A stretch of 64,000 bases of DNA from positions 2,336,001 to 2,400,000 of the forward strand of contig OY760142.1 of assembly GCA_963663225.1 (NCBI GenBank), written 5' to 3'. How positions within the stretch are numbered: position 1 is the first letter of the stretch; every line of letters starts with the position of its first letter. Below the pieces are notes generated by a model that made no database searches, was not told the origin of the DNA, and saw only the letters and a list, made by a program, of their open reading frames with translations. Below are positions 15,096 through 46,216 of this stretch, piece after piece. The position numbers and the translations under genes are program-made. This DNA is from Nitrospirota bacterium. GTDB lineage: Bacteria; Nitrospirota; UBA9217.

Positions 15096-15112
15096 AGAGG
15101 AGCTTTATTATT

Positions 15113-16213
15113 ATGACAGTACCTATGGTTGACTTGAAAATACAATATGAAGCGTTAAAAGAGGAAATCAATGCGGCCGTTCTGGGTGTTATGCAAAGCA
15201 CGCAATTCATCCTCGGCCCCCACGGAAAAGCCCTCGAAGAGGAGGTGGCCAGGTACCACGGGGTGAAGCATGCCGTATCCGTGGCCTCGGGAACAGACGC
15301 GCTCCATCTTGCGCTTCGTGCTGCGGGAATACAGCAGGGCGATGAGGTAATTACCACGGCCTTCACGTTTATCGCAACTGCTGAAGCGGTATCGTATCTT
15401 GGCGCCGTACCGGTGTTTATAGATATCGATCCCGCCACCTTTAATATGGATGTCTCAAAAATTGAAGCGGCTATTACCAAAAAGACGAAGGCCATACTTC
15501 CGGTGCATCTGTACGGACAGCCGGTGGACATGGATGGTTTGATGCAGGTTGCCAAAAAACACGGTCTCAAGGTTATTGAGGACTGCGCACAATCTTTTGG
15601 AGCGGACTATCGTGGAAAAAAGACCGGTACTTTTGGAGAATTCGGCTGTTTCAGTTTCTTCCCGAGCAAGAACCTCGGCGGCTACGGTGATGGCGGCATG
15701 GTGATCACTGATGATGCAAAGCTGGCAGAACATCTGCTGAGTCTGCGAAACCACGGAAGCCATGTCCGATATTACCATGATGAAATCGGATATAACAGCA
15801 GGCTTGATGAGATGCAGGCCGCTATTCTACGCATCAAATTCAAACATATTGAAGAATTCAACACAAAACGCAGAAATAATGCTCATTTGTACGGCACGTA
15901 TCTTTCAGGAAACGGTATTCAGATTCCATCCGAAATGAATGAATCGAAGCATGTTTTCCACCAGTATACCATTAAGATCAAGAACCGGGATGCAGTAAAG
16001 AAAAAACTGGATGATGAAAAAATCACCTCATCCATGATCTACTATCCTGTCCCGCTCCATCTTCAATCCGCGTACAAAAACCTGGGAATGGCCCCTGGAA
16101 GCCTGCCGATGACCGAACAGGTCTCGCATGAAGTGCTGTCGCTTCCCATGTATCCCGAGCTTACCGAGGCGCAGGTCAAACAAGTGTCCGAAGCGGTGAA
16201 AAGAGCGCTCTAG
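15113..16213 (+). CDS. gnnB: DegT-family aminotransferase; GnnB-like
   Basis: SGTDAL; EDCAQ; SFFPSKNLG with catalytic Lys; NSRLD; paired with gnnA. Confidence 0.8.
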   Translation: MTVPMVDLKIQYEALKEEINAAVLGVMQSTQFILGPHGKALEEEVARYHGVKHAVSVASGTDALHLALRAAGIQQGDEVITTAFTFIATAEAVSYLGAVPVFIDIDPATFNMDVSKIEAAITKKTKAILPVHLYGQPVDMDGLMQVAKKHGLKVIEDCAQSFGADYRGKKTGTFGEFGCFSFFPSKNLGGYGDGGMVITDDAKLAEHLLSLRNHGSHVRYYHDEIGYNSRLDEMQAAILRIKFKHIEEFNTKRRNNAHLYGTYLSGNGIQIPSEMNESKHVFHQYTIKIKNRDAVKKKLDDEKITSSMIYYPVPLHLQSAYKNLGMAPGSLPMTEQVSHEVLSLPMYPELTEAQVKQVSEAVKRAL

Positions 16214-26421: not shown

Positions 26422-26501
26422 GCCATTTTGAACATTTGACATCGTTGATGCAGATATCGACAACACTGCATGCGGGTAACCAATCCGCCAGAGGTGGTAC
26501 T

Positions 26502-27272
26502 ATGAAAGTTGTAATTTTAGCAGGAGGACTTGGTACAAGGATTAGCGAAGAAACAGTCGTTCGACCCAAACCCATGGTTGAAATTGGCGGTAAACCGATT
26601 CTCTGGCATATCATGAAAATATATTCACACTTTGGTTTTAATGAGTTTGTTATCTGTCTCGGTTTCAAAGGCTACATGATAAAAGAGTATTTTTCCAATT
26701 ATTTTTTGCATATGAGCGACATCACGTTTGACATGTGCAAAAACTCCATGCAGGTGCATCAACAATACGCCGAACCGTGGAAAGTAACGCTCGTGGACAC
26801 GGGCGAAGAAACGATGACGGGTGGCAGATTAAAACGGGTTGCCGACTATGTTGGCAAAGAAACCTTTATGATGACATACGGCGACGGTGTTGGAAATGTG
26901 AATATTCAGGATTTGTTTTCATTTCATAAAAAACACAACAGGTATGCGACGATGACATCGGTTCAGCCTTCTGGAAGATTCGGGGCGATGAACATAGATG
27001 GAAACAGCGCAGTGGTCTCTTTTCAGGAAAAACCAAAAGGAGACGGTTCCTGGATCAATGGTGGTTTCTTTATGCTCGAGCCGCACGTGATCGACTACAT
27101 AAAATCCGATGAAACTATTTGGGAGCGCGAACCACTGGAGAATCTGGTAAAAGACCATCAGTTGATGGCATATAAACATAATGGATTTTGGCAACCCATG
27201 GATACGCTCAGGGACAAGAATCAACTCGAAAATCTTTGGAAGTCTGGCAATGCACCGTGGAAGGTATGGTGA
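26502..27272 (+). CDS. rfbF: Glucose-1-phosphate cytidylyltransferase
   Basis: [18 protein letters not shown]; TMTGGR; [10 protein letters not shown]. Confidence 0.95.
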
Positions 27273-27400
27273 TTCTCGTTAAGATAACCGATCAGATGTC
27301 ACAATAGTTCTTATGACGACGCTGTTTCTGTACTTTTGTTAAAGTGCGGTAGGCAAAGTTCACTTTTGGAATTAAAAGTGGTTTCATAACAGGCATATCA

Positions 27401-28519
27401 ATGAAAGATAATATAAAAAAACACGGAAATTTGGAAAATTCTTTCGAAGGTTTTTTTAAAGACAAGCGCGTTTTTATTACCGGGCATACCGGTTTTAAGG
27501 GTTCCTGGCTTTGTCTGTGGCTGTCCGCGCTTGGCGCGGAAGTCAACGGTTATGCCCTGAATCCGCCAACGGATCCAAGTCTGTTCGAGCTTGCAGACAT
27601 CAAAAAACTCGTTTTCTCAACAATCGCCGATGTGAGGGACAATGCTGCACTAACAAAAACGATGCTTGCCGTCCGTCCTGAGATTGTCATCCATATGGCG
27701 GCGCAGCCGCTCGTACGTGATTCCTATAAAATACCGGCAGAGACGTATTCCGTCAATGTCATGGGTACGGTGAATTTGTTCGAATCCGTGCGCCAGTGTG
27801 ATACCGTAAGAGCAGTACTGAATGTAACAACAGATAAATGTTATGAGAATAAAGAATGGGTGTGGGGTTACAGGGAGAACGAACCGCTTGGGGGATACGA
27901 TCCCTATTCAAACAGCAAGGCCTGTTCGGAACTGGTAACGTCGGCCTACCGAAACTCATATTTCAACCCAAAAGACTATGCGTCACACGGTGTGACGATC
28001 GCGTCGGCCAGAGCCGGAAATGTCATCGGCGGTGGTGACTGGGCCACGGACAGATTGGTGCCCGATTGCATCAGGGCTCTTTTGAAAAAAGAAAAAATTC
28101 TGATCAGAAACCCACAGGCGATTCGTCCATGGCAGCATGTGCTCGAGCCACTGAACGGATATCTCATGCTGGCAAAAAAAATGTGTGAAGATGGACCGCG
28201 CTACGCAAAACCCTGGAACTTTGGTCCTGATGATGCCGATGCGAAGCCGGTCGAATGGCTGGTTAAGCAGTTGTGTGTGGCATGGGGTGAGGGAGCTTCC
28301 TATACGATTGACGCCGCTGCGCACCCCCATGAAGCTCACTACCTGAAGCTCGACTGCTCCCAGGCTATGAATGAACTGGACTGGCATCCCAAGTGGAATT
28401 TGGAAACAACGATAAGCAGCATTCTCGACTGGACACAAGAATATCGAAATCATCGCGATATTAAAAGCATTTGTTTAAAACAAATTGAAAAATATCTTAC
28501 ACAAGAGGATGCTGCATGA
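27401..28519 (+). CDS. rfbG: CDP-glucose 4,6-dehydratase
   Basis: [10 protein letters not shown]; AAQPLVR.SY; TTDKCY; PYSNSK; RPWQHVLEP. Confidence 0.95.
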
Positions 28520-29739
28520 ATTGCAGATTTTGCAGGAAAGAAAATATTTTCAAGTTTCTTGAGCTTGGAACCATCGCCTTGGCAAACAGCTTTCTTACTG
28601 ATCAGGAATTAGCGTCTGGAGGAGAGCCCACCTATCCCTTGGATGTACATTTTTGCGAACAATGCGGTTTGGTGCAAATCGGCCATGTAGTGGCGCCCGA
28701 TGCGCTTTTTAAAGAGTATATATATTTTTCCGCCACGTCGGATCTGGTTCATAAACATGCCGACTACCTAGCGAAAAGTTTTCAGAGGCGTTTTGGTCTT
28801 ACGGGCGATTCTCGAGTTATTGAGATTGCCAGCAATGACGGAACTGTGTTGCGGTATTTCAAAAAAACCGGTGTCAAGACTCTTGGCGTAGAGCCTGCCA
28901 AGAACATCGCAGCGGTGGCTGAAAAATCGGGCATCGAAACAGTCAATGATTTCTTCAACGAGACAACATCGTGTCAGATAAAAAATAAGTATGGTCCGGC
29001 CGATGTTATCCTCGCCCGCCATGTGTTTGCTCATGTTCCGGAAATTCATGGATTTGTGAAAGGCCTAAAAAATCTTTTAGATGACCATGGCGTGATTGCA
29101 ATCGAAGCTCCTTATCTTATTGACTTTATCGAAAAGACAGAATTTGACACGGTTTATCACGAACACTATTCATACCTGTCAATGCGTGCCATGTCCTACC
29201 TGTTCAATCTTTATGGGATGGAAATTTTTGACGCCGAAAGAGTAACCATCCACGGGGGATCTCTTATTTATTTTATCGGGAACAAAGGAAAGCATGAAGT
29301 CGCCTCGAACGCACCAAAATTGATACAGTCAGAGTTTGAAAAGAAGCTTGATCAAAGGGAAACTTATATCAATTTTGCAAAACGGACATCAAGGATTAAA
29401 ACAGACTTGATTGACCTGTTAAAAAAGATCAAAGCATCGGGAAAAAGAATCGCCGCCTACGGAGCGCCGGCCAAGGGAAATACCTTGCTCAATTATTGCG
29501 GCATTACGCGGAATCTTGTTGAATACACTGTTGATAAAAGCCCTTACAAGCAGAATCTTTTTACACCGGGCGCTCATCTGCGGGTATTTCATCCGGATAA
29601 ACTTGTTCAGGACATGCCGGATTTTGTATTATTACTAGCATGGAATTTTGCTGAAGAAATTTTTGAACAGCAGAAAGAATACCGCTCAAAGGGTGGCAAA
29701 TTTATTCTGCCCATTCCCGATGTCAGGATTGTGTCATGA
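28516..29739 (+). CDS. NDP-hexose C-methyltransferase (TcaB9/EryBIII/NovU family)
   Basis: Zn motif CRFC...CEQC; EIASNDG; YHEHYSY; YGAPAKG; LLAWNF. Confidence 0.9.
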
Positions 29740-30275
29740 TTTTCACAGAGACAATCCTGAACGGTTCTTATCTTATCGATATGGAGCCTGTTGAAGACGA
29801 AAGAGGTTTTTTCTCACGAAGTTTTTGCCGGAAAGAATTTTCTTCCCACGGGCTGAAAACGAATATTGCGCAATGCAATGTCTCTTTTAACAAAAAAAAG
29901 AGTACCTTGCGCGGCATGCACTTTCAAATACCGCCGAAAGCAGAGGCAAAACTTGTACGCTGTACCCGTGGTGCGATATATGATGTTATCATTGATCTGC
30001 GACCTCAATCAGTAACATACTGCAAATGGGCGGCATTTGATTTGACGGCACAAAATTGCAAGGCACTTTACATACCGGAAGGATTTGCCCACGGTTTTCA
30101 AACGGCGGAAGACAATTCTGAAGTTTTTTACCAGATGTTTGAGACCTATGCCCCGGATTATGCTGCGGGCGTAAGATGGGATGATCCGGCTTTCGGTATC
30201 ACTTGGCCACTTAACAACCCTATTATGTCTGAAAAAGACCTGAGATATCCTCTTTTTTCAAAGACCTCAATATGA
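29736..30275 (+). CDS. rfbC: NDP-4-keto-6-deoxyhexose 3,5-epimerase (RmlC cupin)
   Basis: DERGFF; LRGMHFQ; GFAHGF; WDDP. Confidence 0.9.
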
Positions 30276-31132
30276 AGATTCTTCTTATTGGTAAGACCGG
30301 ACAGCTTGGCGGTGATATACTGAAAAATGGTACAAGCCATGAAATTCATGCACCTGAACGGTCCATGCTGAATATTGAATCGAAAGATGAAATTGAGAAA
30401 GCAGTAAAGACATATAAACCCTCAGTGGTAATAAACACTGCGGCATTTCATAATGTTCCGCTCTGTGAAACTGAGTATGAAAAAGCTTTTCGCGTAAACT
30501 GCATTGCTGTCAGGGATATTGCACTTGTCTGCAAAAAAATGAGCGCTCGATTCGTAACTTTCAGTTCGGATTATGTCTTTGGTGGCGAAAAACGATTTCC
30601 TTATCAAGAAACAGACCAGCCCGCCCCCTTGCAAGTGTATGGTATTTCACGAGTTGCAGGGGAGTATGCCGCACTTGCGGCAGCGCATGATATCACCACT
30701 ATTATCAGAACCTGTGGACTCTACGGCATATCCGGGGCGCGTTCCAAGGGAGGTAATTTTGTCGATAAACGAATTCAGGAGGCAAGGGGGCAATCATCTC
30801 TCGAAATGGGATGTGAACAAATAGTTTGCCCAACGTATACGGATGATCTCAGCAGGGCTGTATTGCGCCTAATCGAGCATCCTCGGGCCCAGTCTGGAAT
30901 TTATCATCTTGTTAATGAAGGAGAATGCAGTTGGCATGAATTTACTAAAACTATTTACGAGATCATGAATATTCGTGTCGAGGTCAAGCCGGTTGACAGA
31001 CAGGGAATGAGCGGGACGATGAGACGGCCTCTTTACTCTGTTTTGAAAAATACAAATGCCAGAGCCTTGGGAATAACGCTCCCGTCCTGGCGTGATGCGC
31101 TGGTGAGATATTTAAAAGAAAAACACAAGTAA
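30272..31132 (+). CDS. rfbD: NDP-4-keto-6-deoxyhexose reductase (RmlD family)
   Basis: GKTGQLG; SSDYVF; YGISR (YxxxK to YxxxR variant); RP.YSVL. Confidence 0.85.
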   Translation: MKILLIGKTGQLGGDILKNGTSHEIHAPERSMLNIESKDEIEKAVKTYKPSVVINTAAFHNVPLCETEYEKAFRVNCIAVRDIALVCKKMSARFVTFSSDYVFGGEKRFPYQETDQPAPLQVYGISRVAGEYAALAAAHDITTIIRTCGLYGISGARSKGGNFVDKRIQEARGQSSLEMGCEQIVCPTYTDDLSRAVLRLIEHPRAQSGIYHLVNEGECSWHEFTKTIYEIMNIRVEVKPVDRQGMSGTMRRPLYSVLKNTNARALGITLPSWRDALVRYLKEKHK

Positions 31133-34453: not shown

Positions 34454-36493
34454 GTGGTAAAGATCATAAATTTGAGTCCTTGCAAAAAAAATATGAACAA
34501 CTGGCTTTACTATATGCTGTTTATTCTTCTCGCAGTAGTAGCCATATTTGATTTTGTGGCTTGGAAGCCGGCTTTCTTTTATCCGTCAACGCCGGAAGAG
34601 TTGCATTTAGTTCGAATTGACACCTCTACAGCCTTCGCTTTGTCGTACTGGTTTCAGCACGACGTGCAATTCGGCAAGGACATCATTTTCGCCTACGGCC
34701 CTCTTGGTTTTATAAAATACGCAAAATATCATCCTACATCTTACCATTGGATGATAGCCGGACAGGTATTTCTTTATCTTGCATTTATAACCGGCGCCTG
34801 GTCACTCATCCGAAATGCCAGGGACAGTCGTTTTGTTGTTTTAATGGGGACTTTTTTATGCAGCCTCCTGTTTGTTTTTCAACTTGGCGCTTTTCTTCCG
34901 TCAGTAAACATGAAATATCTGACAGACGCCTTCCTCCAGTCATTTCTTGTGCTCCTCGTGGTTAACTATTATTTCGTTGATGCAGATACCGTCTCTATTA
35001 CCACTATGCTGCTTGCAGTAGCATCCGCATTGATTGCGCTTATCAAGGTCAGCCTGCTGTTTCTGGCGGTTGTTTGTATTTTTTTTATAACCATCACAGA
35101 TATCTTTGACAAAAAAAAGTTTCCGATCATTGCGACCATTTTTTTAGTATCATTTCTCGCTTTGTGGTATGCCGCAGGTCAGCAGCTGCTCAACATTCCC
35201 GATTATTTTCTATCTTCACTGCAGTTGATGAGCGGCTACACCGAAGCCATGTCATACGGCGCACCCGTACGTGCGAATTTGCTCTGTGAGATTCTCTTGT
35301 ATATCCTTCTCGCTTGCGTTCTCCTGACCCTCTTGTGTTTAAAATTACAGCCGTATCGTATACCGTTTAATTTATTGCCTTTCACGCTATTTGCCGCTTT
35401 TATTTTTTTGATATTTAAACACTCCTTTGTTCGCCACGACGGTCATGCGCTCGAAGCATTTTACATGCTATTTTTTTTCCTCTACATTATTTTGGCCCTT
35501 TGGAACGATTTCTTTAAAAACAATCTTCCGAAAATACTTTTTCGCGCATATCTCGGTGTGTTCATAATTTTTACCATTTTTATCTTAATACACTATATTG
35601 GCCCATCCAGAAATAGAATTCCAACGCTTGCCCAAATGAAGCAGTCTGCTGCGATACCTTATAATGTTATGGATGTTGTACATCTGGTAAAGAAGGGGAC
35701 GCAGACTTACACGGAATCGTTGTATGCAGAAAAAGAAGCTATCCGACTGGTATCCGGTCTCCCGTCGATAAATGGGACGGTAGATTTGTATCCGGACAAC
35801 ATTGCCATTGTTACGGCGCTCGAATTACAATATAAGCCACGCCCTGTTGCCATAAGTCATGGCGCTTATTCGTCTTTTTTAGCATTAAAGGACGCTGAAT
35901 ATCTCAGAGGCAGCAGTGCACCGGAAAAAATATTATTTAAAGTAGAGACGATTGACCATAGATATCCTTCAATCGATGATGGTATTTCATGGCGGGAACT
36001 CTGGACACGTTATGCATTTGAGCGGAATGCAGGTGATTATTTGCTGCTTAGTCGTATGAATGTTCCAAAGAAGTATGCTGTCAAAAAAATAGGTCATTTT
36101 GATATACCTTTCGGCCGCTGGATCGATTTAACCGACTCGGGAAACGCCTTGATATGGGCAGAGATAGACATGAAACAGACCACCGCGGGAAAATTGATAA
36201 ATTTTATCTACAAATTACCAGAGGTTAAGATTACGGTTAAGCTTAAAAACAGTATTGTCAAAGAATATAGAATAATTCCCGGGATGCTTTCGTCCGGTTT
36301 TCTTCTTTCTCCACTTGTTGAAGAAAATCGACAATTTAAAGATATCATGAGTAATAAACAAAAAAATATAATTGCGGATGCGGAAGTGCAGGCAGTTATG
36401 TTCAGCGTTGATAACTGGTGGTTTACACAATCATCGAACAGTATATTTTATGCAAACAATTTTCAAATGAGAATTTACCGATTGAACTGGTAA
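34454..36493 (+). CDS. Polytopic membrane protein with periplasmic C-terminal domain; probable GT-C glycosyltransferase
   Basis: About 11-13 TM segments; acidic first loop with FGKDIIFAYGPLG; soluble C-terminal ~290 aa; start uncertain. Confidence 0.55.
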   Translation: MVKIINLSPCKKNMNNWLYYMLFILLAVVAIFDFVAWKPAFFYPSTPEELHLVRIDTSTAFALSYWFQHDVQFGKDIIFAYGPLGFIKYAKYHPTSYHWMIAGQVFLYLAFITGAWSLIRNARDSRFVVLMGTFLCSLLFVFQLGAFLPSVNMKYLTDAFLQSFLVLLVVNYYFVDADTVSITTMLLAVASALIALIKVSLLFLAVVCIFFITITDIFDKKKFPIIATIFLVSFLALWYAAGQQLLNIPDYFLSSLQLMSGYTEAMSYGAPVRANLLCEILLYILLACVLLTLLCLKLQPYRIPFNLLPFTLFAAFIFLIFKHSFVRHDGHALEAFYMLFFFLYIILALWNDFFKNNLPKILFRAYLGVFIIFTIFILIHYIGPSRNRIPTLAQMKQSAAIPYNVMDVVHLVKKGTQTYTESLYAEKEAIRLVSGLPSINGTVDLYPDNIAIVTALELQYKPRPVAISHGAYSSFLALKDAEYLRGSSAPEKILFKVETIDHRYPSIDDGISWRELWTRYAFERNAGDYLLLSRMNVPKKYAVKKIGHFDIPFGRWIDLTDSGNALIWAEIDMKQTTAGKLINFIYKLPEVKITVKLKNSIVKEYRIIPGMLSSGFLLSPLVEENRQFKDIMSNKQKNIIADAEVQAVMFSVDNWWFTQSSNSIFYANNFQMRIYRLNW

Positions 36494-36544: not shown

Positions 36545-37132
36545 ATGATAGCTAAAGATAATGATGTAATACATAAAAGAATCCAGGAATCTATTGAAAA
36601 TTTTTCAAAACTTCTGAAAGATGAGCAGTGCCTCCAGGCGATTTCAGAAGCCGCGCAATCGATTGTTCAAGCCATAAAAAAAAGTAATAAGCTTCTCATC
36701 TGCGGCAATGGAGGTAGTGCTGCCGACGCACAACATATCGCAGGGGAATTTCTCTGCCGTTTTTATAAAGACAGAGCCCCAATGTCTGCGATTGCATTAT
36801 CTACCGATACATCGGTTTTGACGTCCATATCAAACGATTATTCTTATGAGGAGGTTTTTAGCAGGCAGATTATTGGATTGGGTAAACACGGCGATATCCT
36901 TCTCGGAATAAGCACAAGCGGGACTTCATCGAACGTTCTTCAGGCTTTTCGTACTGCAAAGAAAAACGGCTTGAAAACGATTCTCCTTACTGGCAACAGG
37001 AAAAATGATGTTAGTAAAATCTGTGATATTGTGATTACAACGCCTTCGTCAGATACACCCCGTATCCAGGAAATGCACTTGCTCATCGAGCATATTCTTT
37101 GTGAAATAACCGAGGCAGAAGCAATTGACTAA
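36545..37132 (+). CDS. gmhA: Sedoheptulose-7-phosphate isomerase
   Basis: CGNGGSAADAQH; STSG.S.N; RIQEMH. Confidence 0.95.
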   Translation: MIAKDNDVIHKRIQESIENFSKLLKDEQCLQAISEAAQSIVQAIKKSNKLLICGNGGSAADAQHIAGEFLCRFYKDRAPMSAIALSTDTSVLTSISNDYSYEEVFSRQIIGLGKHGDILLGISTSGTSSNVLQAFRTAKKNGLKTILLTGNRKNDVSKICDIVITTPSSDTPRIQEMHLLIEHILCEITEAEAID

Positions 37133-37676
37133 AAAGGCTGTATTCATAGATCGTGATGGCACGATTAATGTCGAAAAAGGATATGTTCATAAAGTAGAAG
37201 ATTTTGAGCTTATCCCTGGCGCAGAAGAAGCGCTCCAACTCCTGACAAAAGCCGGAATAAAGATCTATATTGTTACAAATCAGGCTGGCATTGCAAAAGG
37301 ATTATTCACTGAAGCTGATTTTCATCGCCTGACGGATTATATGCTTGATTGCTTCAGCAAAAACAGTATCAAAATTGAACGCGTTCTTTATTGTCCGCAT
37401 CATCCGGAGGGCATTATACCGCAGTATGCGATTCGTTGTCAGTGCAGGAAGCCCAAAACCTTTTTATTGAGAAATATTATTGGCGAGCAGCATTATGAAG
37501 TCGATGAACTCGCTTTGGTTGGTGATAAAAAAAGCGATATCGAAGCGGGGACGGCATTAGGATTGGACACTTATCTGGTGTTGACAGGATATGGCAAGGA
37601 GCAACGTTCATTAGTAAATCCTACATTTGTCATCCCGGATATTTACCATGCTGCAGTACATATTATAAGCCGTTAA
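37125..37676 (+). CDS. gmhB: Heptose-1,7-bisphosphate phosphatase (second copy, GDP-heptose route)
   Basis: FIDRDGTIN; CPHHP; CQCRKP; TTG start overlapping gmhA. Confidence 0.9.
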   Translation: MTKKAVFIDRDGTINVEKGYVHKVEDFELIPGAEEALQLLTKAGIKIYIVTNQAGIAKGLFTEADFHRLTDYMLDCFSKNSIKIERVLYCPHHPEGIIPQYAIRCQCRKPKTFLLRNIIGEQHYEVDELALVGDKKSDIEAGTALGLDTYLVLTGYGKEQRSLVNPTFVIPDIYHAAVHIISR

Positions 37677-37687
37677 TAGGGGATCAC

Positions 37688-38398
37688 TTGGACGCAATCA
37701 TTTTAGCTGGAGGATTTGGAACCAGACTGCAAAGCCTTGTAAAGGATGTTCCAAAACCCATGGCGGACATTCAGGGGAAGCCATTTTTGGCGTATCTGGT
37801 CGACTTTTTGTCACGGCAAGGATTCAACAAAGTGTTACTCTCCGTGGGGTACAAACACGAAATCATTAAAAATTTTCTCAAAACACAGTATAATCATACA
37901 ACAATCGAGTATGTGACAGAGGACACCCCTCTGGGTACCGGTGGGGCCATACGGGAATCTCTAGGCCATATTCAAGGGAATGAAGCTGTCGTATTGAACG
38001 GAGATACTTTTTTTGATATCGACCTCAACGCCATGTACAGCTTTCATCAGAAACAGAACACTAGCCTGTCTATCGCTGTTAAACCCATGCATGATTTTGA
38101 CAGATACGGAACAATTGTTTTAGAAAAAGACAGAATTGTAACGTTCGAAGAAAAAGCATATAAAAAATTCGGTTATATCAACGGTGGAATCTATATCATG
38201 AACAAGTCAATTTTAAACTTTCTTGAGCAATACAGCGGCCAGTTTTCCTTTGAAGCTGACTTTTTGGCTAAAATAGTATATACTTTTACGCCGTCTGCGT
38301 TTATCAGTGAAGGATATTTTGTCGATATTGGAATCCCTGAAGATTATAAAAAAGCCCAGATTGATCTGGTCCGGATTGGACGGGAAAGGATAGTATAA
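37688..38398 (+). CDS. hddC: Heptose-1-phosphate guanylyltransferase
   Basis: LAGGFGTRL..PKPM; LGTGG; NGDT; FVDIGIPEDY; heptose cluster context. Confidence 0.88.
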   Translation: MDAIILAGGFGTRLQSLVKDVPKPMADIQGKPFLAYLVDFLSRQGFNKVLLSVGYKHEIIKNFLKTQYNHTTIEYVTEDTPLGTGGAIRESLGHIQGNEAVVLNGDTFFDIDLNAMYSFHQKQNTSLSIAVKPMHDFDRYGTIVLEKDRIVTFEEKAYKKFGYINGGIYIMNKSILNFLEQYSGQFSFEADFLAKIVYTFTPSAFISEGYFVDIGIPEDYKKAQIDLVRIGRERIV

Positions 38399-38399
38399 A

Positions 38400-39347
38400 A
38401 TGTTATTGTCTGTCGTTTTTTCATTCAGGAACGAAGAAAAAGTATTAGATGAATTGATCAGACGCGTCAAGGAGTCTGCAAAAAAAACCGGGTTAGACTC
38501 GGAAATTATTTTTGTAAACGATGATTCCACGGATAAATCTGCGGATATTATTCAAAAACATCAGACTATTGACTCCAGCATTAAACTGATTAATATGTCA
38601 AAACGATTTGGCGTCCATCCCTGCGTTATCGCAGGACTACGGCATGCCAAAGGTGATGCTATTGTTTATATGGACACGGATTTGCAGGATCCGCCTGAAG
38701 TAATACCGCAGCTGGTCGAAAAATGGAAAGCCGGTGCAGATGTGGTCAACACGGTGCGAACAAAGCGATTGGGAGAAAATCCTTTCAAGATGTGGCTGAC
38801 GAAAAAAGCCTATCAAGTAATCAACTTTGTGTCGGATATTAATTTGCCGCCTAATATGGGAGACTTCAAACTGCTTTCGCGGAGAGTTGTTGATGAGTTG
38901 CTTCAGATACAGGAGACAGACCCATTTATGCGGGGATTGGTGCGGTGGATTGGTTTTAAACAAGAGACAGTGTATTATGTGCGCGAAGCCAGATACGCTG
39001 GGAAGACGCATTTTTCGCTTTTTGGTTCTGGCCCTGTTAAAGAGTTCATACGTGGTATTGCGTCATTTTCCGCCGCCCCGTTATATGCAAGCGTAATCGT
39101 AGGCATCCTTGTTTCCTTTTGCTCTTTTGCCTTTATCATATATGTTCTCATCGTATGGCTTATGGGGCTGGCTGTTCCGGGATGGGCCGGTGTTATGATA
39201 GCAGTGCTTCTTCTGGGAGGAATGATCCTCTTTTCAAATGGTCTCAACGGAATTTATATTGGAAGAATTTATGAACAAGTTAAAAACAGGCCACTGTATA
39301 TAATAAAAAATAAAATCGGATTTGATGAGCCACAAAATAAGAGTTAA
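38400..39347 (+). CDS. GtrB/DPM-like polyprenol-phosphate glycosyltransferase (GT2 plus 2 C-terminal TMs)
   Basis: NDDSTD; DTDLQDPP; GDFKL; two TMs; IGRIYEQVK.RPLY. Confidence 0.88.
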   Translation: MLLSVVFSFRNEEKVLDELIRRVKESAKKTGLDSEIIFVNDDSTDKSADIIQKHQTIDSSIKLINMSKRFGVHPCVIAGLRHAKGDAIVYMDTDLQDPPEVIPQLVEKWKAGADVVNTVRTKRLGENPFKMWLTKKAYQVINFVSDINLPPNMGDFKLLSRRVVDELLQIQETDPFMRGLVRWIGFKQETVYYVREARYAGKTHFSLFGSGPVKEFIRGIASFSAAPLYASVIVGILVSFCSFAFIIYVLIVWLMGLAVPGWAGVMIAVLLLGGMILFSNGLNGIYIGRIYEQVKNRPLYIIKNKIGFDEPQNKS

Positions 39348-39375
39348 TTAATGAATAGATGGAAATGGAAAAACT

Positions 39376-40386
39376 ATGATTATATCAAGAACACCGCATA
39401 GAATATCATTTTTTGGTGGCGGAACAGATTACGCTTCATGGTATCTTGAACATGGAGGTATGGTGCTGGGAGCCGCGATCGACAAATATTGTTATCTTAC
39501 CTGCAGAGAATTGCCGCCATTTTTTAAGCATCGTCACCGCATTGCTTATTCAAAAGTTGAGACGGTTTGTGATGCAGACGAAATTCTTCATCCCTCAGTC
39601 AGAGAAACATTGAAATACCTGAATATACAGCAAGGTTTGGAGATTCATCATGATGGTGACATCCCCGCCAGATCAGGCATGGGCTCAAGTTCTGCCTTTA
39701 CCGTTGGTTTGCTTAAAACCTTGTATGCTTTCAACGGCAAGCTGATTACCAAGGAGGACTTATACAAGCAGGCCATCCACATCGAGCAAAATCTTATCAA
39801 AGAAAATGTAGGATCGCAGGATCAGGTTTGGGCCGCATGCGGAGGATTAAATACCATTGAGTTTTTACAGAATGGTGAAATTATAGTTGAACCAATCATC
39901 ATGAAAGAAAAGCTGCTGAACAACTTTGAAGGAAAGTTTATGCTTTTCTTTACCGGTCTCTCACGACATGCTCATGAAATTGCCGGCGAACAGATTCAAA
40001 ATACCAAGAAAAATACGCAGCAGCTTTCAGCCATGAGAAGCCTGGTTGATGATGCCTATAAAATCCTTACATCCGGGAAAGACGATTTTAAGGATTTTGG
40101 AAAGCTGCTGCACGAAACATGGTTGTTGAAAAGAAAATTATCCAGCAAGATTACAAACAGTTTTATAGACGATTTATATGATAAGGCTTTAAAGCATGGA
40201 GCAATAGGCGGTAAATTGCTGGGAGCAGGGGGCGGCGGCTTTATTGTTTTCTATGTGGAGCCTGAAAAACAGGAACGAGTAAAAAACGCCCTGAGTGATT
40301 ATTTGCACGTGCCATTTCATTTTGATTTCACCGGCTCTGAAATTATTGTTTATAAACCAACATACAACTATAACAACGGGAGATAG
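39376..40386 (+). CDS. hddA: Heptose-7-phosphate kinase (GHMP)
   Basis: RTPHRISFFGGGTD; GMGSSS; GSQDQ; GGKLLGAGGGG. Confidence 0.9.
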   Translation: MIISRTPHRISFFGGGTDYASWYLEHGGMVLGAAIDKYCYLTCRELPPFFKHRHRIAYSKVETVCDADEILHPSVRETLKYLNIQQGLEIHHDGDIPARSGMGSSSAFTVGLLKTLYAFNGKLITKEDLYKQAIHIEQNLIKENVGSQDQVWAACGGLNTIEFLQNGEIIVEPIIMKEKLLNNFEGKFMLFFTGLSRHAHEIAGEQIQNTKKNTQQLSAMRSLVDDAYKILTSGKDDFKDFGKLLHETWLLKRKLSSKITNSFIDDLYDKALKHGAIGGKLLGAGGGGFIVFYVEPEKQERVKNALSDYLHVPFHFDFTGSEIIVYKPTYNYNNGR

Positions 40387-40387
40387 T

Positions 40388-41548
40388 ATGAAGTTTGAAT
40401 TGGCAAGCTCTACCTGGGACGAGGAAGAAAAGAGTGCGATACTGGATGTTGTGAACAGCAATATGTTCACCATGGGCCAAAAGGTCAAGGAATTTGAAGA
40501 CAGATTCGCACGTTATTTCGGAATGAAATATGCTGTTATGGCCAATTCAGGGTCATCAGCAAATCTGATCGCTCTTGCATCGCTTTTCTATCGAAAGGAT
40601 AATCCGCTTAAGCGCGGAGATGAGGTTATTGTTCCTTGTATTTCTTGGTCGACTACATTTCACCCTCTTCAGCAATACGGACTTAAACTCAAGTTTGTTG
40701 ATGTTGATCTGCATACCTTAAATATCGATATTCAGGAACTGAAAAAGGCGATTACTGACAAAACAAAGATGATTGTTGCAGTAAGTATTTTAGGCAATCC
40801 CTGTCAGTTCGATGAAATTACAAATTTGTGTCGGGAAAAAAATATTATCCTTTTTGAGGATAATTGCGAATCCATGGGCGCACGCTTTAATAATAAATTC
40901 ACCGGGACATTTGGCCTGGTGAATACGTTCAGCACATTTTTTTCTCACCATATTTCGACAATGGAAGGTGGTCTCGTTCTGACTGATGATAAGGAATTAT
41001 TCAATCTTCTAAAATCGATCAGAAATCACGGCTGGACCCGGGGCCAGGATGCAGACAGCCCTATTTTTGAGCGCAGAGATGACGACTTCTTCGAAGCCTA
41101 TCGATTTATACTTCCGGGTTATAATGTACGGCCTGGTGAGATGCACGGCGCCATTGGTTGTAAACAGCTTGATAAATTGACCGGATTTATCAAGACGAGA
41201 AGAAAAAACGCAAAATACTTTCTCAACCTTTTTAAGCAAGACGAACGGTTCATTATTCAAAAAGAAGTAGGTGAAAGCTCCTGGTTTTCTTTTACCATGA
41301 TTATTAATCCTGGTTTGAAAATTGACAGAAAAAAAGTCCTTCAGCGATTAAAAGAAGCGGAAATCGAGCATCGTATTATTACCGGTGGGAACATACTAAG
41401 GCACGATGTAATTAAATATTACGATTATACCGTGACGAAATCCACCAATGCGGACATTGCCCACTATAATGGTTTTTTTGTCGGTAATTTCCCGTACGAT
41501 ATTAGAGAAAAAATTGATTACCTGCATAAGACATTAAAGGGAATATAA
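40388..41548 (+). CDS. colD: PLP-dependent NDP-4-keto sugar C3-dehydratase (ColD-like)
   Basis: LASSTWD..E N-terminus; NSGSSANL; FFSHHISTMEGG with His in place of the catalytic Lys; PGYNVRP. Confidence 0.85.
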   Translation: MKFELASSTWDEEEKSAILDVVNSNMFTMGQKVKEFEDRFARYFGMKYAVMANSGSSANLIALASLFYRKDNPLKRGDEVIVPCISWSTTFHPLQQYGLKLKFVDVDLHTLNIDIQELKKAITDKTKMIVAVSILGNPCQFDEITNLCREKNIILFEDNCESMGARFNNKFTGTFGLVNTFSTFFSHHISTMEGGLVLTDDKELFNLLKSIRNHGWTRGQDADSPIFERRDDDFFEAYRFILPGYNVRPGEMHGAIGCKQLDKLTGFIKTRRKNAKYFLNLFKQDERFIIQKEVGESSWFSFTMIINPGLKIDRKKVLQRLKEAEIEHRIITGGNILRHDVIKYYDYTVTKSTNADIAHYNGFFVGNFPYDIREKIDYLHKTLKGI

Positions 41549-41561
41549 AGGAGATACAAAA

Positions 41562-42500
41562 ATGGTTTTTAATATACTGGTTACCGGTGGCGCCGGATAT
41601 CTTGGATCGATTCTCGTTCCCGAGTTACTTAAGAATGGACACACAGTAACGGTTTTAGACACGTTTATGTTTGGACAGAATTCACTCCTTGAATGCTGTA
41701 CAAACATAAATTTTGACGTTATGCGGGGTGACGCGCGGGATGAAGAATTGTTAAAATCACTCCTCTGGAATAAAGACTTTATAATTCCCTTGGCAGCTTT
41801 GGTTGGCGCGCCACTATGTGCAAGAGATAAAATAGGGACAATTACAACAAATAAGGACGCAATAGCTTCCTTGGTCAAGCTTGCCTCGAAGGAACAAAGA
41901 ATACTCATGCCGGTAACCAACAGCGGCTATGGTATTGGTCAGAAAGGTGTATACTGTACTGAAGAAACACCCCTCAATCCGATATCCCTCTATGGGAAAA
42001 CGAAGGTCGAAGCAGAAAAAATTATACTCGACAGAGGCAACGCCATAAGCTTCCGGCTTGCTACCGTTTTTGGGATGGCACCGCGTATGAGAATGGACCT
42101 GCTCGTCAATGATTTCACCTATCGGGCGGTTAAGGATCGCTTTGTCGTTGTTTTTGAAGGTCACTTCAAACGAAACTACATCCATACTCGTGATGTATCC
42201 AGAGCTTTTCTCCATGCCATCGATAATTTTGACCGCATGAAAAATGAACCGTATAATGTTGGATTATCAAATGCAAATGTTTCGAAATTAGAACTGTGCG
42301 CCAAGATCAAAGAACAAGTTCAGGATTTCGTGTATTTGGAAGCTCCTATCGGTGAAGACCCGGATAAAAGAGATTACATCGTATCCAATGAAAAAATTGA
42401 AAAAACCGGATTTCAGCCACAGCATTCTCTTGAAATGGGAATTAAGGAACTCATAAAAGGCTATCGGATTCTTACAAACAGCAAATACAGCAATGTTTAA
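41562..42500 (+). CDS. SDR; GDP-heptose C4-dehydrogenase (Campylobacter Cj1427/WcaG-like)
   Basis: GGAGYLGS; IIPLAALVGAPLC; TNSGYG; RLATVFG..PRMR.DLLVNDF; GEDPDKRDY, blocks recalled from Cj1427. Confidence 0.8.
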   Translation: MVFNILVTGGAGYLGSILVPELLKNGHTVTVLDTFMFGQNSLLECCTNINFDVMRGDARDEELLKSLLWNKDFIIPLAALVGAPLCARDKIGTITTNKDAIASLVKLASKEQRILMPVTNSGYGIGQKGVYCTEETPLNPISLYGKTKVEAEKIILDRGNAISFRLATVFGMAPRMRMDLLVNDFTYRAVKDRFVVVFEGHFKRNYIHTRDVSRAFLHAIDNFDRMKNEPYNVGLSNANVSKLELCAKIKEQVQDFVYLEAPIGEDPDKRDYIVSNEKIEKTGFQPQHSLEMGIKELIKGYRILTNSKYSNV

Positions 42501-43455
42501 AGACGCAAAAATATATGTTGCAGGACATACGGGCCTTCTCGGTTCGTCACTCATCAAAAAATTGACTGCTTCGGGATATCGTAATGTTATTATAAGGAGT
42601 CATGAAGAGGCTGATCTGACTAATTGGAGTGCAGTAGATACTCTGTTTAGGCAAGAAGAGCCTGAATATGTTTTTCTCTGCGCCGGATTAACCGGCGGAA
42701 TTTATGCCAATAAGACCTATCCTGCAACGTTTTTGAGAACTAATATTGCAATTCAAAACAACGTATTCGAAGCTGCTCAACGGTACAAGATAAGACACCT
42801 TGTTTTTTATGGTTCTTCCTGTGTATATCCTAAGAATAGTCAACAGCCTATAAAAGAAAGTTATCTTTTTCAAGGTGAAATTGAATCAACCAGTGAGGCT
42901 TATGCGATTGCAAAAACGGCAGGCATAATCGGCTGCCGGTCCTTTAATAGTCAATACAAAACAAATCGCTTCATTGCGTTGTTGCCGAATTCAATGTACG
43001 GGCCATGCGATAATTTTGATGTTAATAATTCCCATGTACTATCTGCATTGATCAGACGAATTCATGATGCCCATCAGGCCGGTGATGTCGCAATAACTCT
43101 CTGGGGCAGCGGCTCTCCTCGGCGTGAGTTTATTTTTAACGAGGATGTTGCAGATGCTTCGATTTTCGCAATGCAGAATGCGTCTAAACTGCAGAATAGC
43201 CACTATAATGTCGGAACCGGCACAGACTATTCAATTCGCGAATTAGCAGAAATAATTGCCGCTATCATTGGTTTTAAAGGAACAATTACCTGGGACGTAA
43301 GTAAGCCAGACGGAACAATGCGCAAACTTTTAGACAGCTCAAGATTTTTAGAACTTGGCTGGAGGCCGAACGTTGCATTAAAAGAGGGCTTGAAACTTAC
43401 ATATCAATGGTACCTAAAAAATCAACCTTGCAATAAAAGGATGTTCTATGAATAA
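42493..43455 (+). CDS. GDP-L-fucose-synthase-family epimerase/reductase (Fcl/ColC-like)
   Basis: AGHTGLLGS; GSSCVYPK; YAIAK; SHVL.AL; WGSG.P.REF; KPDG. Confidence 0.88.
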   Translation: MFKDAKIYVAGHTGLLGSSLIKKLTASGYRNVIIRSHEEADLTNWSAVDTLFRQEEPEYVFLCAGLTGGIYANKTYPATFLRTNIAIQNNVFEAAQRYKIRHLVFYGSSCVYPKNSQQPIKESYLFQGEIESTSEAYAIAKTAGIIGCRSFNSQYKTNRFIALLPNSMYGPCDNFDVNNSHVLSALIRRIHDAHQAGDVAITLWGSGSPRREFIFNEDVADASIFAMQNASKLQNSHYNVGTGTDYSIRELAEIIAAIIGFKGTITWDVSKPDGTMRKLLDSSRFLELGWRPNVALKEGLKLTYQWYLKNQPCNKRMFYE

Positions 43456-44275
43456 GCAGTTATTTAATCTCCATGCAATGAATGAAAAAGCACGGTGGGT
43501 CCGGACAGAGACCTTGAATATTCATAGAATTGCTCAGGAAGCTCGAATTGCCTCATCATTATCTTCCGTAGAAATTTTCGTTGCGCTGTATTATGGCGAT
43601 ATTCTTCAATTCGATTCTCGCAATCCGCGATGGGAGTTTCGAGACCGATTTGTTATCAGCAAAGGACACGGTTCAATCTCCTTGTATCCTATTCTGGCTG
43701 ATTTAGGATATTTTGACAAGCAAGAACTGCAGCGGGTATGCAAAGAAGGCACTTTTTTAGGGGGTATTCCTGATCCTATAATTCCGGGATATGAAAGCGT
43801 CAATGGTTCCTTGGGGCACGGACTTGGAGTCGCGTGCGGCATGGCATTAGGACTTAAGGCTAAGAGCAAAAATGAATCAGTATTTGTTCTTGTCGGTGAT
43901 GGGGAACTGAATGAAGGATCAATGTGGGAAGCTGTTATGCTGGCCCATGCACAGCGTCTAGACAACTTGATTGTGATTGTCGATAACAACAAAATCAGCA
44001 TGCTTGATTATTGCGAAAAAATTCTCGATCTTGAACCACTCGGAGAAAAATTCAACGCTTTTAAGTGGCACGTACAGACGGTTGACGGGCATGATCTGGA
44101 GCAGCTTTACAGCGCACTGAAAAAGTTGAAAGCTAAAAAAGACGGCAAGCCAAAAGTTCTCATTGCAAATACCGTTAAGGGAAAGGGAGTCCGGAGTCTG
44201 GAAAACGACTCTCTCTGCCACGTAAAAAATGTTTCCCCGGATATCATAGATGCCGCAATTAAGGAACTGCAATGA
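43448..44275 (+). CDS. Transketolase-like ThDP enzyme, N-terminal subunit (atypical active site)
   Basis: SKGH; GSLGHG; GDGELNEG...N ThDP motif; DGHD; TVKGKG. Confidence 0.88.
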   Translation: MNKQLFNLHAMNEKARWVRTETLNIHRIAQEARIASSLSSVEIFVALYYGDILQFDSRNPRWEFRDRFVISKGHGSISLYPILADLGYFDKQELQRVCKEGTFLGGIPDPIIPGYESVNGSLGHGLGVACGMALGLKAKSKNESVFVLVGDGELNEGSMWEAVMLAHAQRLDNLIVIVDNNKISMLDYCEKILDLEPLGEKFNAFKWHVQTVDGHDLEQLYSALKKLKAKKDGKPKVLIANTVKGKGVRSLENDSLCHVKNVSPDIIDAAIKELQ

Positions 44276-45237
44276 ACTCAACAAAAAAAACCATGAGGGA
44301 CGTTTTTATCGAAGGCATTTATAATCGAATGCAGCATGATAGAACGCTCTTTTTCCTCACCGCTGATTTTGGATCGCCTAAGTTGGACAAAATACGAGCA
44401 GACTATCCCGATCGATTTCTTAATGTTGGAATTGCTGAGCAAAATTTGATCAATGTCGCCGCGGGATTGGCATTGGAAGGTTTTACCGTCTATGCATACG
44501 CTATAGCACCCTTTTTAATAATGAGAGCTTATGAACAGATTCGAAATAATCTGTCGCTTCTCTCCCATACGCATCAGGTAAATGTGAATTTGTTCGGTGT
44601 CGGCGGCGGACTCAGCTATGATGTGTCCGGCCCAACACATCACTGCTTGGAAGATATCAGCATAATGCGCACTCTACCGAATATTACCATTTTTTCACCG
44701 AGCGATTGGGTGCTTGCAGAACAGTTCATAGATTTTTCTATTGATACAAAAACCCCCAAATACATGCGTTTTGATGGAAAACCTTCGGTCAATATTTATG
44801 ATCCTCAGAAGAAAATTGATTTAAAAGCCGGCTTTATTGAACTTGTTCAAGGAGAAAATATTTGCATCGTCTCGACAGGTTTTATGACGCGTACCGCATT
44901 GAAAGCTATTGAAACACTTGTTGAAGAAAACATCAACCCTGGTCTTATAGACGTTTTTCTCGTGAAACCACTATCCGCAGATATCCTTTACAATTGCATA
45001 AAAAAGTATAAATATGTTGTTACGATAGAGGAAGGCTTTACCAATAAAGCAGGCCTTGATTCGATAATTGCCAATATACTGTGTGCGCAAAAATCAGATA
45101 TCGTGCTGGAAAAAATGGGATTCGGAGATGCCTACGTTTTTGATATCGGCAGCAGGGAATACTTACACGCTTTGTATGGGTTAGATGAAAAGGGGATTGC
45201 GAAAAAAATTATAAAAATCCAGAATGCGTCCGTATGA
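44272..45237 (+). CDS. Transketolase-like ThDP enzyme, C-terminal subunit
   Basis: NVGIAEQN; RAYEQIR; GPTHH..ED; coupled by ATGA overlap. Confidence 0.88.
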   Translation: MNSTKKTMRDVFIEGIYNRMQHDRTLFFLTADFGSPKLDKIRADYPDRFLNVGIAEQNLINVAAGLALEGFTVYAYAIAPFLIMRAYEQIRNNLSLLSHTHQVNVNLFGVGGGLSYDVSGPTHHCLEDISIMRTLPNITIFSPSDWVLAEQFIDFSIDTKTPKYMRFDGKPSVNIYDPQKKIDLKAGFIELVQGENICIVSTGFMTRTALKAIETLVEENINPGLIDVFLVKPLSADILYNCIKKYKYVVTIEEGFTNKAGLDSIIANILCAQKSDIVLEKMGFGDAYVFDIGSREYLHALYGLDEKGIAKKIIKIQNASV

Positions 45238-45241
45238 TGCC

Positions 45242-46216
45242 ATGGTCAAAAAAAAAATTATTGCTATTGTAACAGGAATTATAATAAGTCTTGCACTTTT
45301 AACCGGAGCCTTTTTTAATACAAATTTTTACAATTTTATTGCTTCATTAAAAAAAACCGAACCTCACGTTCTTTTTTTGTGTATTTTTTTTATTTTTTTA
45401 TCATATTGTACCAGGGCCCTGATGTGGCGTATTACCACAACTCGGTTCCACGACAAAACTATACGTTTTTCCACGCTGTTCGGTGGAATCGCCGTCGGAT
45501 ATATGGTAAATGGTATTTTGCCGTTTCGTGCGGGTGAATTTTTCAGAGCTCAGTTTTTGGCGTCAATGACGGGGCTGGGCCGAACGTTTGCTTTATCAAC
45601 AATTTTTATAGAACGCATCCTGGATATGATTACCTTGAGTTGCCTCTTAATTATCGGCATTTTTTGGGGCATCCAAGGATTAACCTCCCAAACTGTAAAA
45701 GTTATATTGCTGATTTGCCTGTTTATCATCTTGGTAGCGATACTCCTGATAAAATACTCTGATAACCTCGAAAAAATGAAACATAAGCTTGCCCGTTTTT
45801 CGCCTAGGTTACCCGAAATTCTTGCTCATTTCCTTTTACCGTTTCAAAAATTACGTGAAATAAAAAAAATAGTATCACTCTTCTTGCTCAGCCTTATATC
45901 CTGGATGTGTATTTATTTGTCTCTCTTGATGCTTGTTTATTCATCAGTCCCCATAGAAACATATAAAGCCGCACTTTTACTCTTCTTATTTGTAAATATT
46001 GGCATGCTTATACCCGCAGCTCCCAGTGCACTCGGTGTTCTTCAAATGGCTTTTTGGCTATCCCTCGCGCAGTTCAATGTTTCGAAAGAAGAAGCGCTGG
46101 CCCTCTCATTTGTATTTTTGTTTGTGTCATTCTTTTTTAATGCAAGCCTCGGGCTTCCCTATTTTGTTAAAGCGCATTTATGGTCGCAAAGAAAAGACAT
46201 TCAGGATAATCGATGA
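45242..46216 (+). CDS. Flippase-like membrane protein (UPF0104/LPG-synthase TM family)
   Basis: RA..W; N.ILPFRAGE..R; ERILD; P.AP..LG; about 8 TMs. Confidence 0.85.
   Translation: MVKKKIIAIVTGIIISLALLTGAFFNTNFYNFIASLKKTEPHVLFLCIFFIFLSYCTRALMWRITTTRFHDKTIRFSTLFGGIAVGYMVNGILPFRAGEFFRAQFLASMTGLGRTFALSTIFIERILDMITLSCLLIIGIFWGIQGLTSQTVKVILLICLFIILVAILLIKYSDNLEKMKHKLARFSPRLPEILAHFLLPFQKLREIKKIVSLFLLSLISWMCIYLSLLMLVYSSVPIETYKAALLLFLFVNIGMLIPAAPSALGVLQMAFWLSLAQFNVSKEEALALSFVFLFVSFFFNASLGLPYFVKAHLWSQRKDIQDNR

Follow-up and report, generated by a model that had tools for sequence, protein, structure and literature searches.

The window analysed here, a stretch of 64,000 nucleotides from the genome of a Nitrospirota bacterium (assembly GCA_963663225.1, contig OY760142.1, positions 2,336,001 to 2,400,000), carries on its forward strand an intact and conserved operon (36545-46216) with genes for heptose activation, three sugar-tailoring enzymes, a split transketolase and membrane functions. 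On balance, the sequences lead us to favor the interpretation that the product of this operon is a surface sugar of nine carbons, namely a 3-deoxy-heptose branched at C4, formed through 4-oxidation, 3-deoxygenation, acetyl branching and reduction. The early tailoring steps, C4 oxidation and C3 deoxygenation of a GDP-heptose, are quite likely. A first-pass annotation of the same DNA had proposed an unbranched GDP-3-deoxy-heptose as the product. Its oxidation and deoxygenation steps agree with the type of the short-chain dehydrogenase/reductase (SDR) and with published chemistry (PMC10680097), whereas the unbranched end product is at odds with the transketolase pair and with the thiamine diphosphate (ThDP) enzyme that stands beside ColD in almost every well-flanked related locus.

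The SDR (41562-42500) is a Cj1427-like, NAD-bound C4-dehydrogenase. Its gapless alignment to Cj1427 (PDB 6vo6) scores 379 bits, and a hand count gives 167 identical residues among 308 (54%); the next-best solved SDR reaches only 76 bits. The enzyme has the GxxGxxG and YxxxK motifs by which the Cj1427 type is recognized. The motif TNSGYG, found in the window protein and in 80 of the 81 proteins checked, stands where Gmd has STSE and RfbG has TTDK; the enzyme therefore lacks the acid/base pair of a 4,6-dehydratase, and motif and identity together rule out that the SDR is one. The gene before it (40388-41548) encodes a C3-dehydratase dependent on pyridoxal phosphate (PLP), in which the exchange of Lys for His (FFSHH) noticed earlier is present. 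This protein scores 471 bits against PDB 2gms but 178 bits against the CDP-type E1 enzymes (RfbH/DdhC), which places it with ColD rather than E1. Its His occupies the position that is Asn in PDB 3b8x, which we take to be the H188N mutant. The window enzyme is 55% identical to ColD of E. coli O55; the ColD proteins of the related gene cassettes described below form a clade apart from four colitose ColDs (FastTree support 0.988), and the columns that set the two groups apart were listed from the alignment.

The absence of a GDP-sugar 4,6-dehydratase, first noted for the locus, extends to the genome as a whole: in this single contig of 3.26 Mb, 99% complete, a search with TIGR01472 reached no more than 84 bits, where the cut-off is 415. 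Because the complete genome has no gmd, colitose is an unlikely product and a GDP-heptose route is favored; colitose by way of a distant gmd is ruled out, as the genome is without an enzyme of the Gmd class. In vitro work of 2023 (PMC10680097), which combined Campylobacter enzymes of different serotype origin, achieved oxidation at C4 followed by deoxygenation at C3 of a heptose that keeps its 6-OH, and the removal of the C3-OH was demonstrated on the same heptose substrate for the enzyme of C. jejuni HS:5 (PMC10680097). The view that this combination had not been characterized is thus superseded, the three-enzyme chemistry having already been run. The natural pathway and its product appear undescribed: our literature search, which covered neither most subscription journals nor supplements, found no paper on this cluster as it occurs in nature, nor on a 3-deoxy-heptose of natural origin.

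The operon extends past 43455 with a split transketolase pair, followed by an LPG_synthase_TM gene. The N (PP) chain (43448-44275; PDB 6yak, 179 bits) and the C (Pyr+C) chain (44272-45237; PDB 6yaj, 130 bits), numbered by alignment to E. coli TktA, keep the ThDP and metal residues H66, D155, N185, H261, E411 and H473. Six canonical substrate residues are replaced (H26R and H100I in the N chain; S385P, H461G, D469S and R520G in the C chain), and only R358 is kept. The full-length transketolase of the same genome keeps the TktA sites (with Gln at 473, and 261 unaligned), and its other split transketolase keeps H26 and H100 of the N chain, the sole sites aligned. S385 and H461 are missing from all 24 related C chains in the alignment. 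A supply of sedoheptulose 7-phosphate is ruled out as the role of the pair, as the substrate residues are lost and the genome has two canonical transketolases elsewhere. The genes are under purifying selection, with a ratio of nonsynonymous to synonymous substitution rates (dN/dS) of 0.07-0.13. The available text of PMC7661550 gives Phe at position 100 of DXS and reports that H100F or H100L increases the use of pyruvate by transketolase; H100L together with D469T and changes at S385 and R520 was used for pyruvate and non-phosphorylated acceptors, as far as the accessible part of PMC10787763 describes. From the sequence, H100I would be a change of this pyruvate-donor type.

Gene neighborhoods tie a ThDP enzyme to the two early steps. 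We compared the best 80 of 582 Cj1427-like loci in assembled-genome contigs and the best 80 of 413 ColD loci in metagenomes. Of the Cj1427-like loci, 55 also hold hddA, 44 a His-type PLP enzyme, 42 a ThDP pair (25 transketolases, 17 of E1 alpha/beta type), 40 a B12-radical SAM gene, 31 fcl and 3 gmd. The PLP enzymes of these cassettes belong to three non-orthologous families with about 30% identity between them, and His occupies the ColD site in each of the 43 clustered members. After 29 loci with less than 5 kb of flank were dropped, 51 remained; the ThDP pair occurs in 28 of the 31 with a His-type PLP enzyme, versus 4 of the 20 without. The three exceptions (L022, L070 and L072) also hold a cassette-type ThDP enzyme. 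The genomes of L070 and L072 have radical SAM-E1 and radical SAM-transketolase blocks elsewhere, and L022 has a YerE-like gene directly before colD, with PDB 8rph and 5ahk as best matches. The latter structure is presumably PpYerE; the former shows the CDG motif given for JanthE in the available text of PMC12247030. Such a YerE/JanthE-like gene lies directly upstream of colD-cj1427-radical SAM in L022:6749-8752 and L035:3-1520 (Rhodospirillales).

The ColD loci lead to a similar picture: the Cj1427-like gene is present in 67 of the 80, the ThDP pair in 55, and gmd in just 3. Where at least 3.5 kb is available on each side (28 loci), the counts are 27 for the Cj1427-like gene, 27 for the ThDP enzyme, 20 for radical SAM, 17 for fcl and 1 for gmd. 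Of the synteny that the first-pass annotation proposed to look for, the link of colD with the Cj1427-like gene is tight and that with fcl is looser; the ThDP gene had been left out of it. Because the ThDP enzyme is tied more closely to ColD and Cj1427 than Fcl is, a C4-branched product is likelier than the plain 3-deoxy-heptose. Transketolase, E1 alpha/beta and YerE-like enzymes, three mutually unrelated ThDP families, swap in the same slot of the cassette. The available text of PMC12247030 lists only the DC (with YerE), TK and alphaKADH2 superfamilies as using ketones, known or proposed, which favors the branching. In L092 and L094, whose ColDs are 81% and 85% identical, E1 alpha/beta genes occupy exactly the position of the window's transketolase. 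A complete cassette lies between IS66 elements on plasmid pDMC1 of Solidesulfovibrio magneticus RS-1 (L180, NC_012797.1 22514-39663), like Magnetospirillum moscoviense BB-1 (L019) a cultured and non-pathogenic carrier of the full set, comprising radical SAM, E1, Fcl, a His-type PLP enzyme, a Cj1427-like SDR, a phospholipid-carrier glycosyltransferase, lhgO, a SIS gene and a GT-C-type transferase. This suggests that the cassette is mobile.

One locus, L105:3405-8332, reads gmd-colD-fcl-tkN-tkC and has neither a Cj1427-like gene nor a heptose gene in the 8.5 kb of sequence examined. It is a 6-deoxy form of the module, probably based on a hexose, and its gene set fits a transketolase that acts on a 4-keto sugar. 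In this locus, at least, a ColD of the clade works with a gmd, which, together with the presence of RfbF and RfbG in the same gene run as our operon, speaks for ColD and Fcl acting on a 6-deoxy-4-keto sugar in the window as well, giving either colitose via gmd or a yersiniose-like 3,6-dideoxy sugar from the upstream CDP-glucose 4,6-dehydratase. We consider this very improbable: gmd is missing from the complete genome; the dehydratase is of the ColD type and not a CDP-type E1; the motif of the SDR is that of Cj1427, without a dehydratase acid/base; RfbG belongs to a module of its own with a C-methyltransferase, RmlC and RmlD; and gmd occurs in only three of the ColD loci compared.

The main rival to a branched product is the plain one, in which the 4-keto intermediate is epimerized at C5 and reduced at C4 by the Fcl-like enzyme to unbranched GDP-D-glycero-3-deoxy-L-heptose (L-xylo if Fcl acts like ColC), with some other role for the transketolase. 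The Fcl/ColC-like protein (42493-43455) was identified correctly from the start: it keeps the catalytic triad S107/Y136/K140 and the epimerase dyad C109/H179. Its score against NF047922 is 389 bits, under the cut-off of 500, and in a quick tree with four colitose references it falls in a cassette clade of 28 rows (SH-aLRT 99), outside E. coli Fcl and ColC. These residues are what the plain route needs, C. jejuni enzymes perform exactly its series of steps in vitro (PMC10680097), and the radical SAM gene is absent from the source genome. However, the genes of the transketolase pair overlap fcl, show conservation and selection, and do not encode the canonical kind that makes sedoheptulose 7-phosphate; the ThDP enzyme accompanies ColD more faithfully than Fcl does; and a different SDR takes the Fcl slot in L088, L090, L095 and L098. 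We therefore regard the plain 3-deoxy-heptose as unlikely, although a serious competitor. A second Fcl-like protein follows the E1 pair in five loci (L090:13390, L092:13979, L094:10312, L095:10187 and L098:11705); it carries Y136F, C109D and H179Q and so is catalytically altered. Its neighbors are a gene that is presumably PfpI-like, by motif, and one that we take to be altronate-dehydratase-like.

For the favored branched product, the pathway would start from GDP-D,D-heptose. The Cj1427-like enzyme would oxidize C4 and re-oxidize its bound NADH on 2-oxoglutarate, forming L-2-hydroxyglutarate, as its 54% identity to Cj1427 suggests, and the ColD-type enzyme would strip the C3-OH with PLP and glutamate. 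The split transketolase would then attach two carbons to the C4 ketone, probably as an acetyl group derived from pyruvate, comparable to YerE in yersiniose biosynthesis. The Fcl-like enzyme may epimerize C5, reduce the side-chain ketone in the role of YerF, or do both; this is the weakest step, because the protein has all it needs for reducing C4 on its own. A GtrB-like glycosyltransferase would load the sugar onto undecaprenyl phosphate, and the flippase-like protein and a possible GT-C protein would deliver it to lipopolysaccharide (LPS) or another glycan.

The scaffold entering this pathway is predicted from four activation genes, gmhA, gmhB, hddC and hddA. Every open reading frame named in the first-pass annotation is intact, on the forward strand and located as it had said. 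The four products are nearest to heptose enzymes, yet they lie at or below the NCBIfam cut-offs: the GmhA-like sedoheptulose-7-phosphate isomerase (36545-37132; TIGR00441, 196 bits, cut-off 209), the HddC-like heptose-1-phosphate guanylyltransferase (37688-38398; NF049965, 247 bits, cut-off 300) and the HddA-like GHMP kinase of a divergent subfamily (39376-40386; NF049969, 158 bits, cut-off 600) are under them, and the GmhB-like heptose-bisphosphate phosphatase (37125-37676; TIGR00213, 149.2 bits, cut-off 149.6) is at it. The closest solved relatives are heptose-7-phosphate kinases for the kinase (PDB 3k85, 4usm, 4n3o) and an enzyme of a 6-deoxy-heptose pathway for the nucleotidyltransferase (best PDB 5xhw, 172 bits). 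The scores of kinase, nucleotidyltransferase and isomerase, and the presence of gmhA nearby in only 9 of 80 related loci, would fit an explanation in which the ThDP enzyme acts away from C4 or the scaffold is not standard: activation might, for example, follow the extension of a sugar phosphate or aldehyde to an octose or nonose, or the oxidase might act on GDP-mannose. The lincosamide octose pathway employs similar activation enzymes. We hold this to be improbable. The transketolase has lost the residues that would bind the phosphate of an aldose-phosphate acceptor; pyruvate enzymes of the E1 and YerE types stand in for it in other loci, and the 1-deoxy-ketose they would form could not enter a GmhA-type isomerization; and both the window locus and pDMC1 have a GmhA/SIS gene of their own.

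Several observations weigh against the branched heptose that we favor. The HddA-like kinase is so far under its family cut-off that the scaffold may not be exactly D,D-manno-heptose. The Fcl-like protein, with its residues for C5 epimerization and C4 reduction, would compete with the transketolase for the 4-keto intermediate, from which it could form the plain sugar. About one third of the 25 related N chains (e.g., L002, L004 and L005) keep H26 and H100, so the two-carbon donor may differ between copies of the cassette. L112 and L123 have colD-cj1427-fcl, and the sequence examined there contains no ThDP gene. The co-occurrence counts come from the best-scoring loci of each set, among which kin are not independent, so that the Fisher value for the ThDP pair overstates the association. 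Finally, the available text of PMC12247030 names no characterized split transketolase with a keto-sugar acceptor; ten split transketolases were tested on aldehyde acceptors, according to the accessible part of PMC13663882.

The first-pass annotation had also suggested that the dehydratase and the oxidase recycle 2-oxoglutarate between them. One 2-oxoglutarate is released per turnover by ColD-type enzymes (PMC10440746, available text), and one is used by Cj1427 and becomes L-2-hydroxyglutarate (PMC10680097), so that the 1:1 stoichiometry stands. The recycling does not, because the net balance of the two enzymes is glutamate to L-2-hydroxyglutarate plus ammonia: 2-oxoglutarate is passed through. 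The coupling is probably incidental, with both enzymes exchanging with the pool of the cell; the in vitro work supplied 8 mM 2-oxoglutarate (PMC10680097). The oxidase is independent of the C3-dehydratase, since the two occur in separate C. jejuni serotypes and 36 of the 80 Cj1427-like loci have no His-type PLP gene. The match in stoichiometry is thus a neat outcome of known chemistry and no new principle. The natural recycler would be an LhgO-like oxidase. Among 160 related loci, 18 have a gene of this kind, and pDMC1 carries lhgO as well, which indirectly supports 2-oxoglutarate as the oxidant of the bound NADH; against the LhgO cut-off of 299 bits, one such protein of genome G046 scores above (340) and that of L094 below (237). 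The source genome has an LhgO-like FAD enzyme (G000:C1:2509581-2510693), 63% identical to the L094 protein that is encoded beside gmhA; its gene lies outside the operon and adjoins the gene of a full-length transketolase.

The genes of the operon are tightly packed, with overlaps of 8 nucleotides between fcl and the transketolase N chain, 4 between the two chains and 14 between the C chain and the last gene, after which a gap of 184 nucleotides follows. This last gene (45224-46216) encodes the LPG_synthase_TM/flippase-like membrane protein (PF03706, 148 bits; TIGR00374). Between hddC and hddA lies the gene for the GtrB-like polyprenyl-phosphate glycosyltransferase of family GT2 (38400-39347; PDB 5eke, sll0501, 237 bits), whose homologs recur in related loci at 43-63% identity. 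Upstream of gmhA, on the same strand, a gene at 34454-36493 encodes a multi-pass membrane protein of 679 residues with a soluble C-terminal part, a candidate GT-C-type transferase that would take its sugar from a lipid carrier, and a weak lead. It has no Pfam or NCBIfam match and belongs to a widespread unnamed family (30 Atlas matches with a top value of 0.99 and no common Pfam among them); the nearest named Atlas cluster is PF13231 PMT_2, on 22% of members. The protein is 90% identical in the same-genus genome G004, and its single-sequence fold is unusable (pLDDT 39).

The block forms the end of a long run of lipid A and LPS genes (lpxD, lpxA, lpxB, msbA, waaA, lpxK, a heptosyltransferase and glycosyltransferases). 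The genes for ColD, the Cj1427-like SDR, Fcl and the HddA-like kinase are single-copy in the genome, and gmhA and gmhB have second copies (G000:818747 and window position 21626, respectively). Among the relatives searched, ColD is carried by 2 of 5 genomes of the same genus, 0 of 31 others of the family and 1 of 24 of the phylum. Both same-genus copies have the identical gene order through the transketolase and the flippase-like gene, and dN/dS is 0.03-0.25 against G004 (11 genes) and 0.05-0.11 against G002 (5 genes). The run of genes also contains, about 8 kb before the block, the CDP-glucose module rfbF-rfbG-C-methyltransferase-rmlC-rmlD (window 26436-31132), which is predicted to make a CDP-linked 3-C-methyl-6-deoxyhexose and is 90-95% conserved in G004. 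Further upstream, between lpxI and lpxB (window 14145-16213), we observe a Gfo/Idh/MocA dehydrogenase (NF040723, UDP-GlcNAc 3-dehydrogenase, 214 bits, under the cut-off) and a DegT aminotransferase of the Lys type; the pair presumably resembles GnnA/GnnB, for 2,3-diamino-glucose lipid A.

If the branched product is right, this is a natural surface-sugar pathway for which we found no description, spread over Nitrospirae, Planctomycetota including anammox genera, Omnitrophota, alpha-, gamma- and delta-proteobacteria, Acidobacteria and Arcobacter. It would contain the first split transketolase that accepts a ketone, which would close a gap pointed out by a 2025 review and be of biocatalytic value for tertiary alcohols. 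It would also give a testable hypothesis for the origin of caryose, which the available text of a 2022 review calls unknown (PMC9092360). The carbon count and pattern of caryose are those of a heptose with an acetyl group at C4, 3-deoxy and oxygenated at C6 and C7. By nomenclature, D-ido over C2, C4, C5 and C6 means that C2 and C6 are as in D-glycero-D-manno-heptose while C5 is inverted, which is what an Fcl-type epimerase would give, and the 3-deoxy position, the C4-C8 bond and the C9 methyl agree with a heptose that has gained an acetyl group and closed between C7 and C8. Tentatively, and with considerable doubt, we suggest by this analogy that the cassette is a route to caryose-type carbocyclic nonoses in which the B12-radical SAM enzyme closes the C7-C8 cyclopentane, and that copies without it would make open-chain 4-C-(1-hydroxyethyl)-3-deoxy-heptose with a pyruvate-using, ketone-accepting split transketolase. 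The likeness of the cassette enzyme to its best NCBIfam match is weak and generic (HpnJ, 165 bits, cut-off 578). Caryose needs the C7-C8 closure, but the source genome has no ortholog of the B12-radical SAM gene (best identity 32%, versus 36-53% or more for orthologs), nor do the loci of G004 and G002. A copy of this kind is the simplest to reconstitute, because no oxygen-sensitive enzyme is needed. Our literature search found no caryose gene cluster, including in the available text of PMC6337347. A link to bradyrhizose was considered and not made, as the available text of PMC4743980 names an 11-gene cluster without a transketolase or radical SAM enzyme.

Besides caryose, three known systems are closest to the operon. 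The acyl-branched sugars such as yersiniose A (YerE/YerF, ErwE and MMAR_2332) share with it a 3-deoxy-4-keto nucleotide sugar and, per cluster, a ThDP carboligase and a reductase, as far as the available texts of PMC9306805 and PMC12247030 describe. In those pathways the acceptor is CDP-4-keto-3,6-dideoxyglucose (PMC9306805, available text), made by E1/E3, and the ligase has the YerE fold; in the window the acceptor would be a GDP-heptose, and we find a split transketolase and no YerE-fold ligase. The colitose pathway of E. coli O55 and O111 (Gmd, ColD, ColC) shares the His-type ColD and an Fcl/ColC-like epimerase-reductase, whereas the window has no Gmd, its oxidase retains the C6-OH, and its ColD and Fcl fall outside the colitose clades. 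The GDP-heptose enzymes of C. jejuni are of the same types and carry out C4 oxidation on 2-oxoglutarate and then C3 deoxygenation with PLP and glutamate; however, the C4-dehydrogenase occurs in HS:2, 3, 4, 23/36 and 33 and the C3-dehydratase in HS:5, 11, 45 and 60, and the two were combined only artificially. In the window both genes are adjacent in nature, joined by a ThDP carboligase and a GtrB-like lipid-carrier system, with no cupin epimerase.

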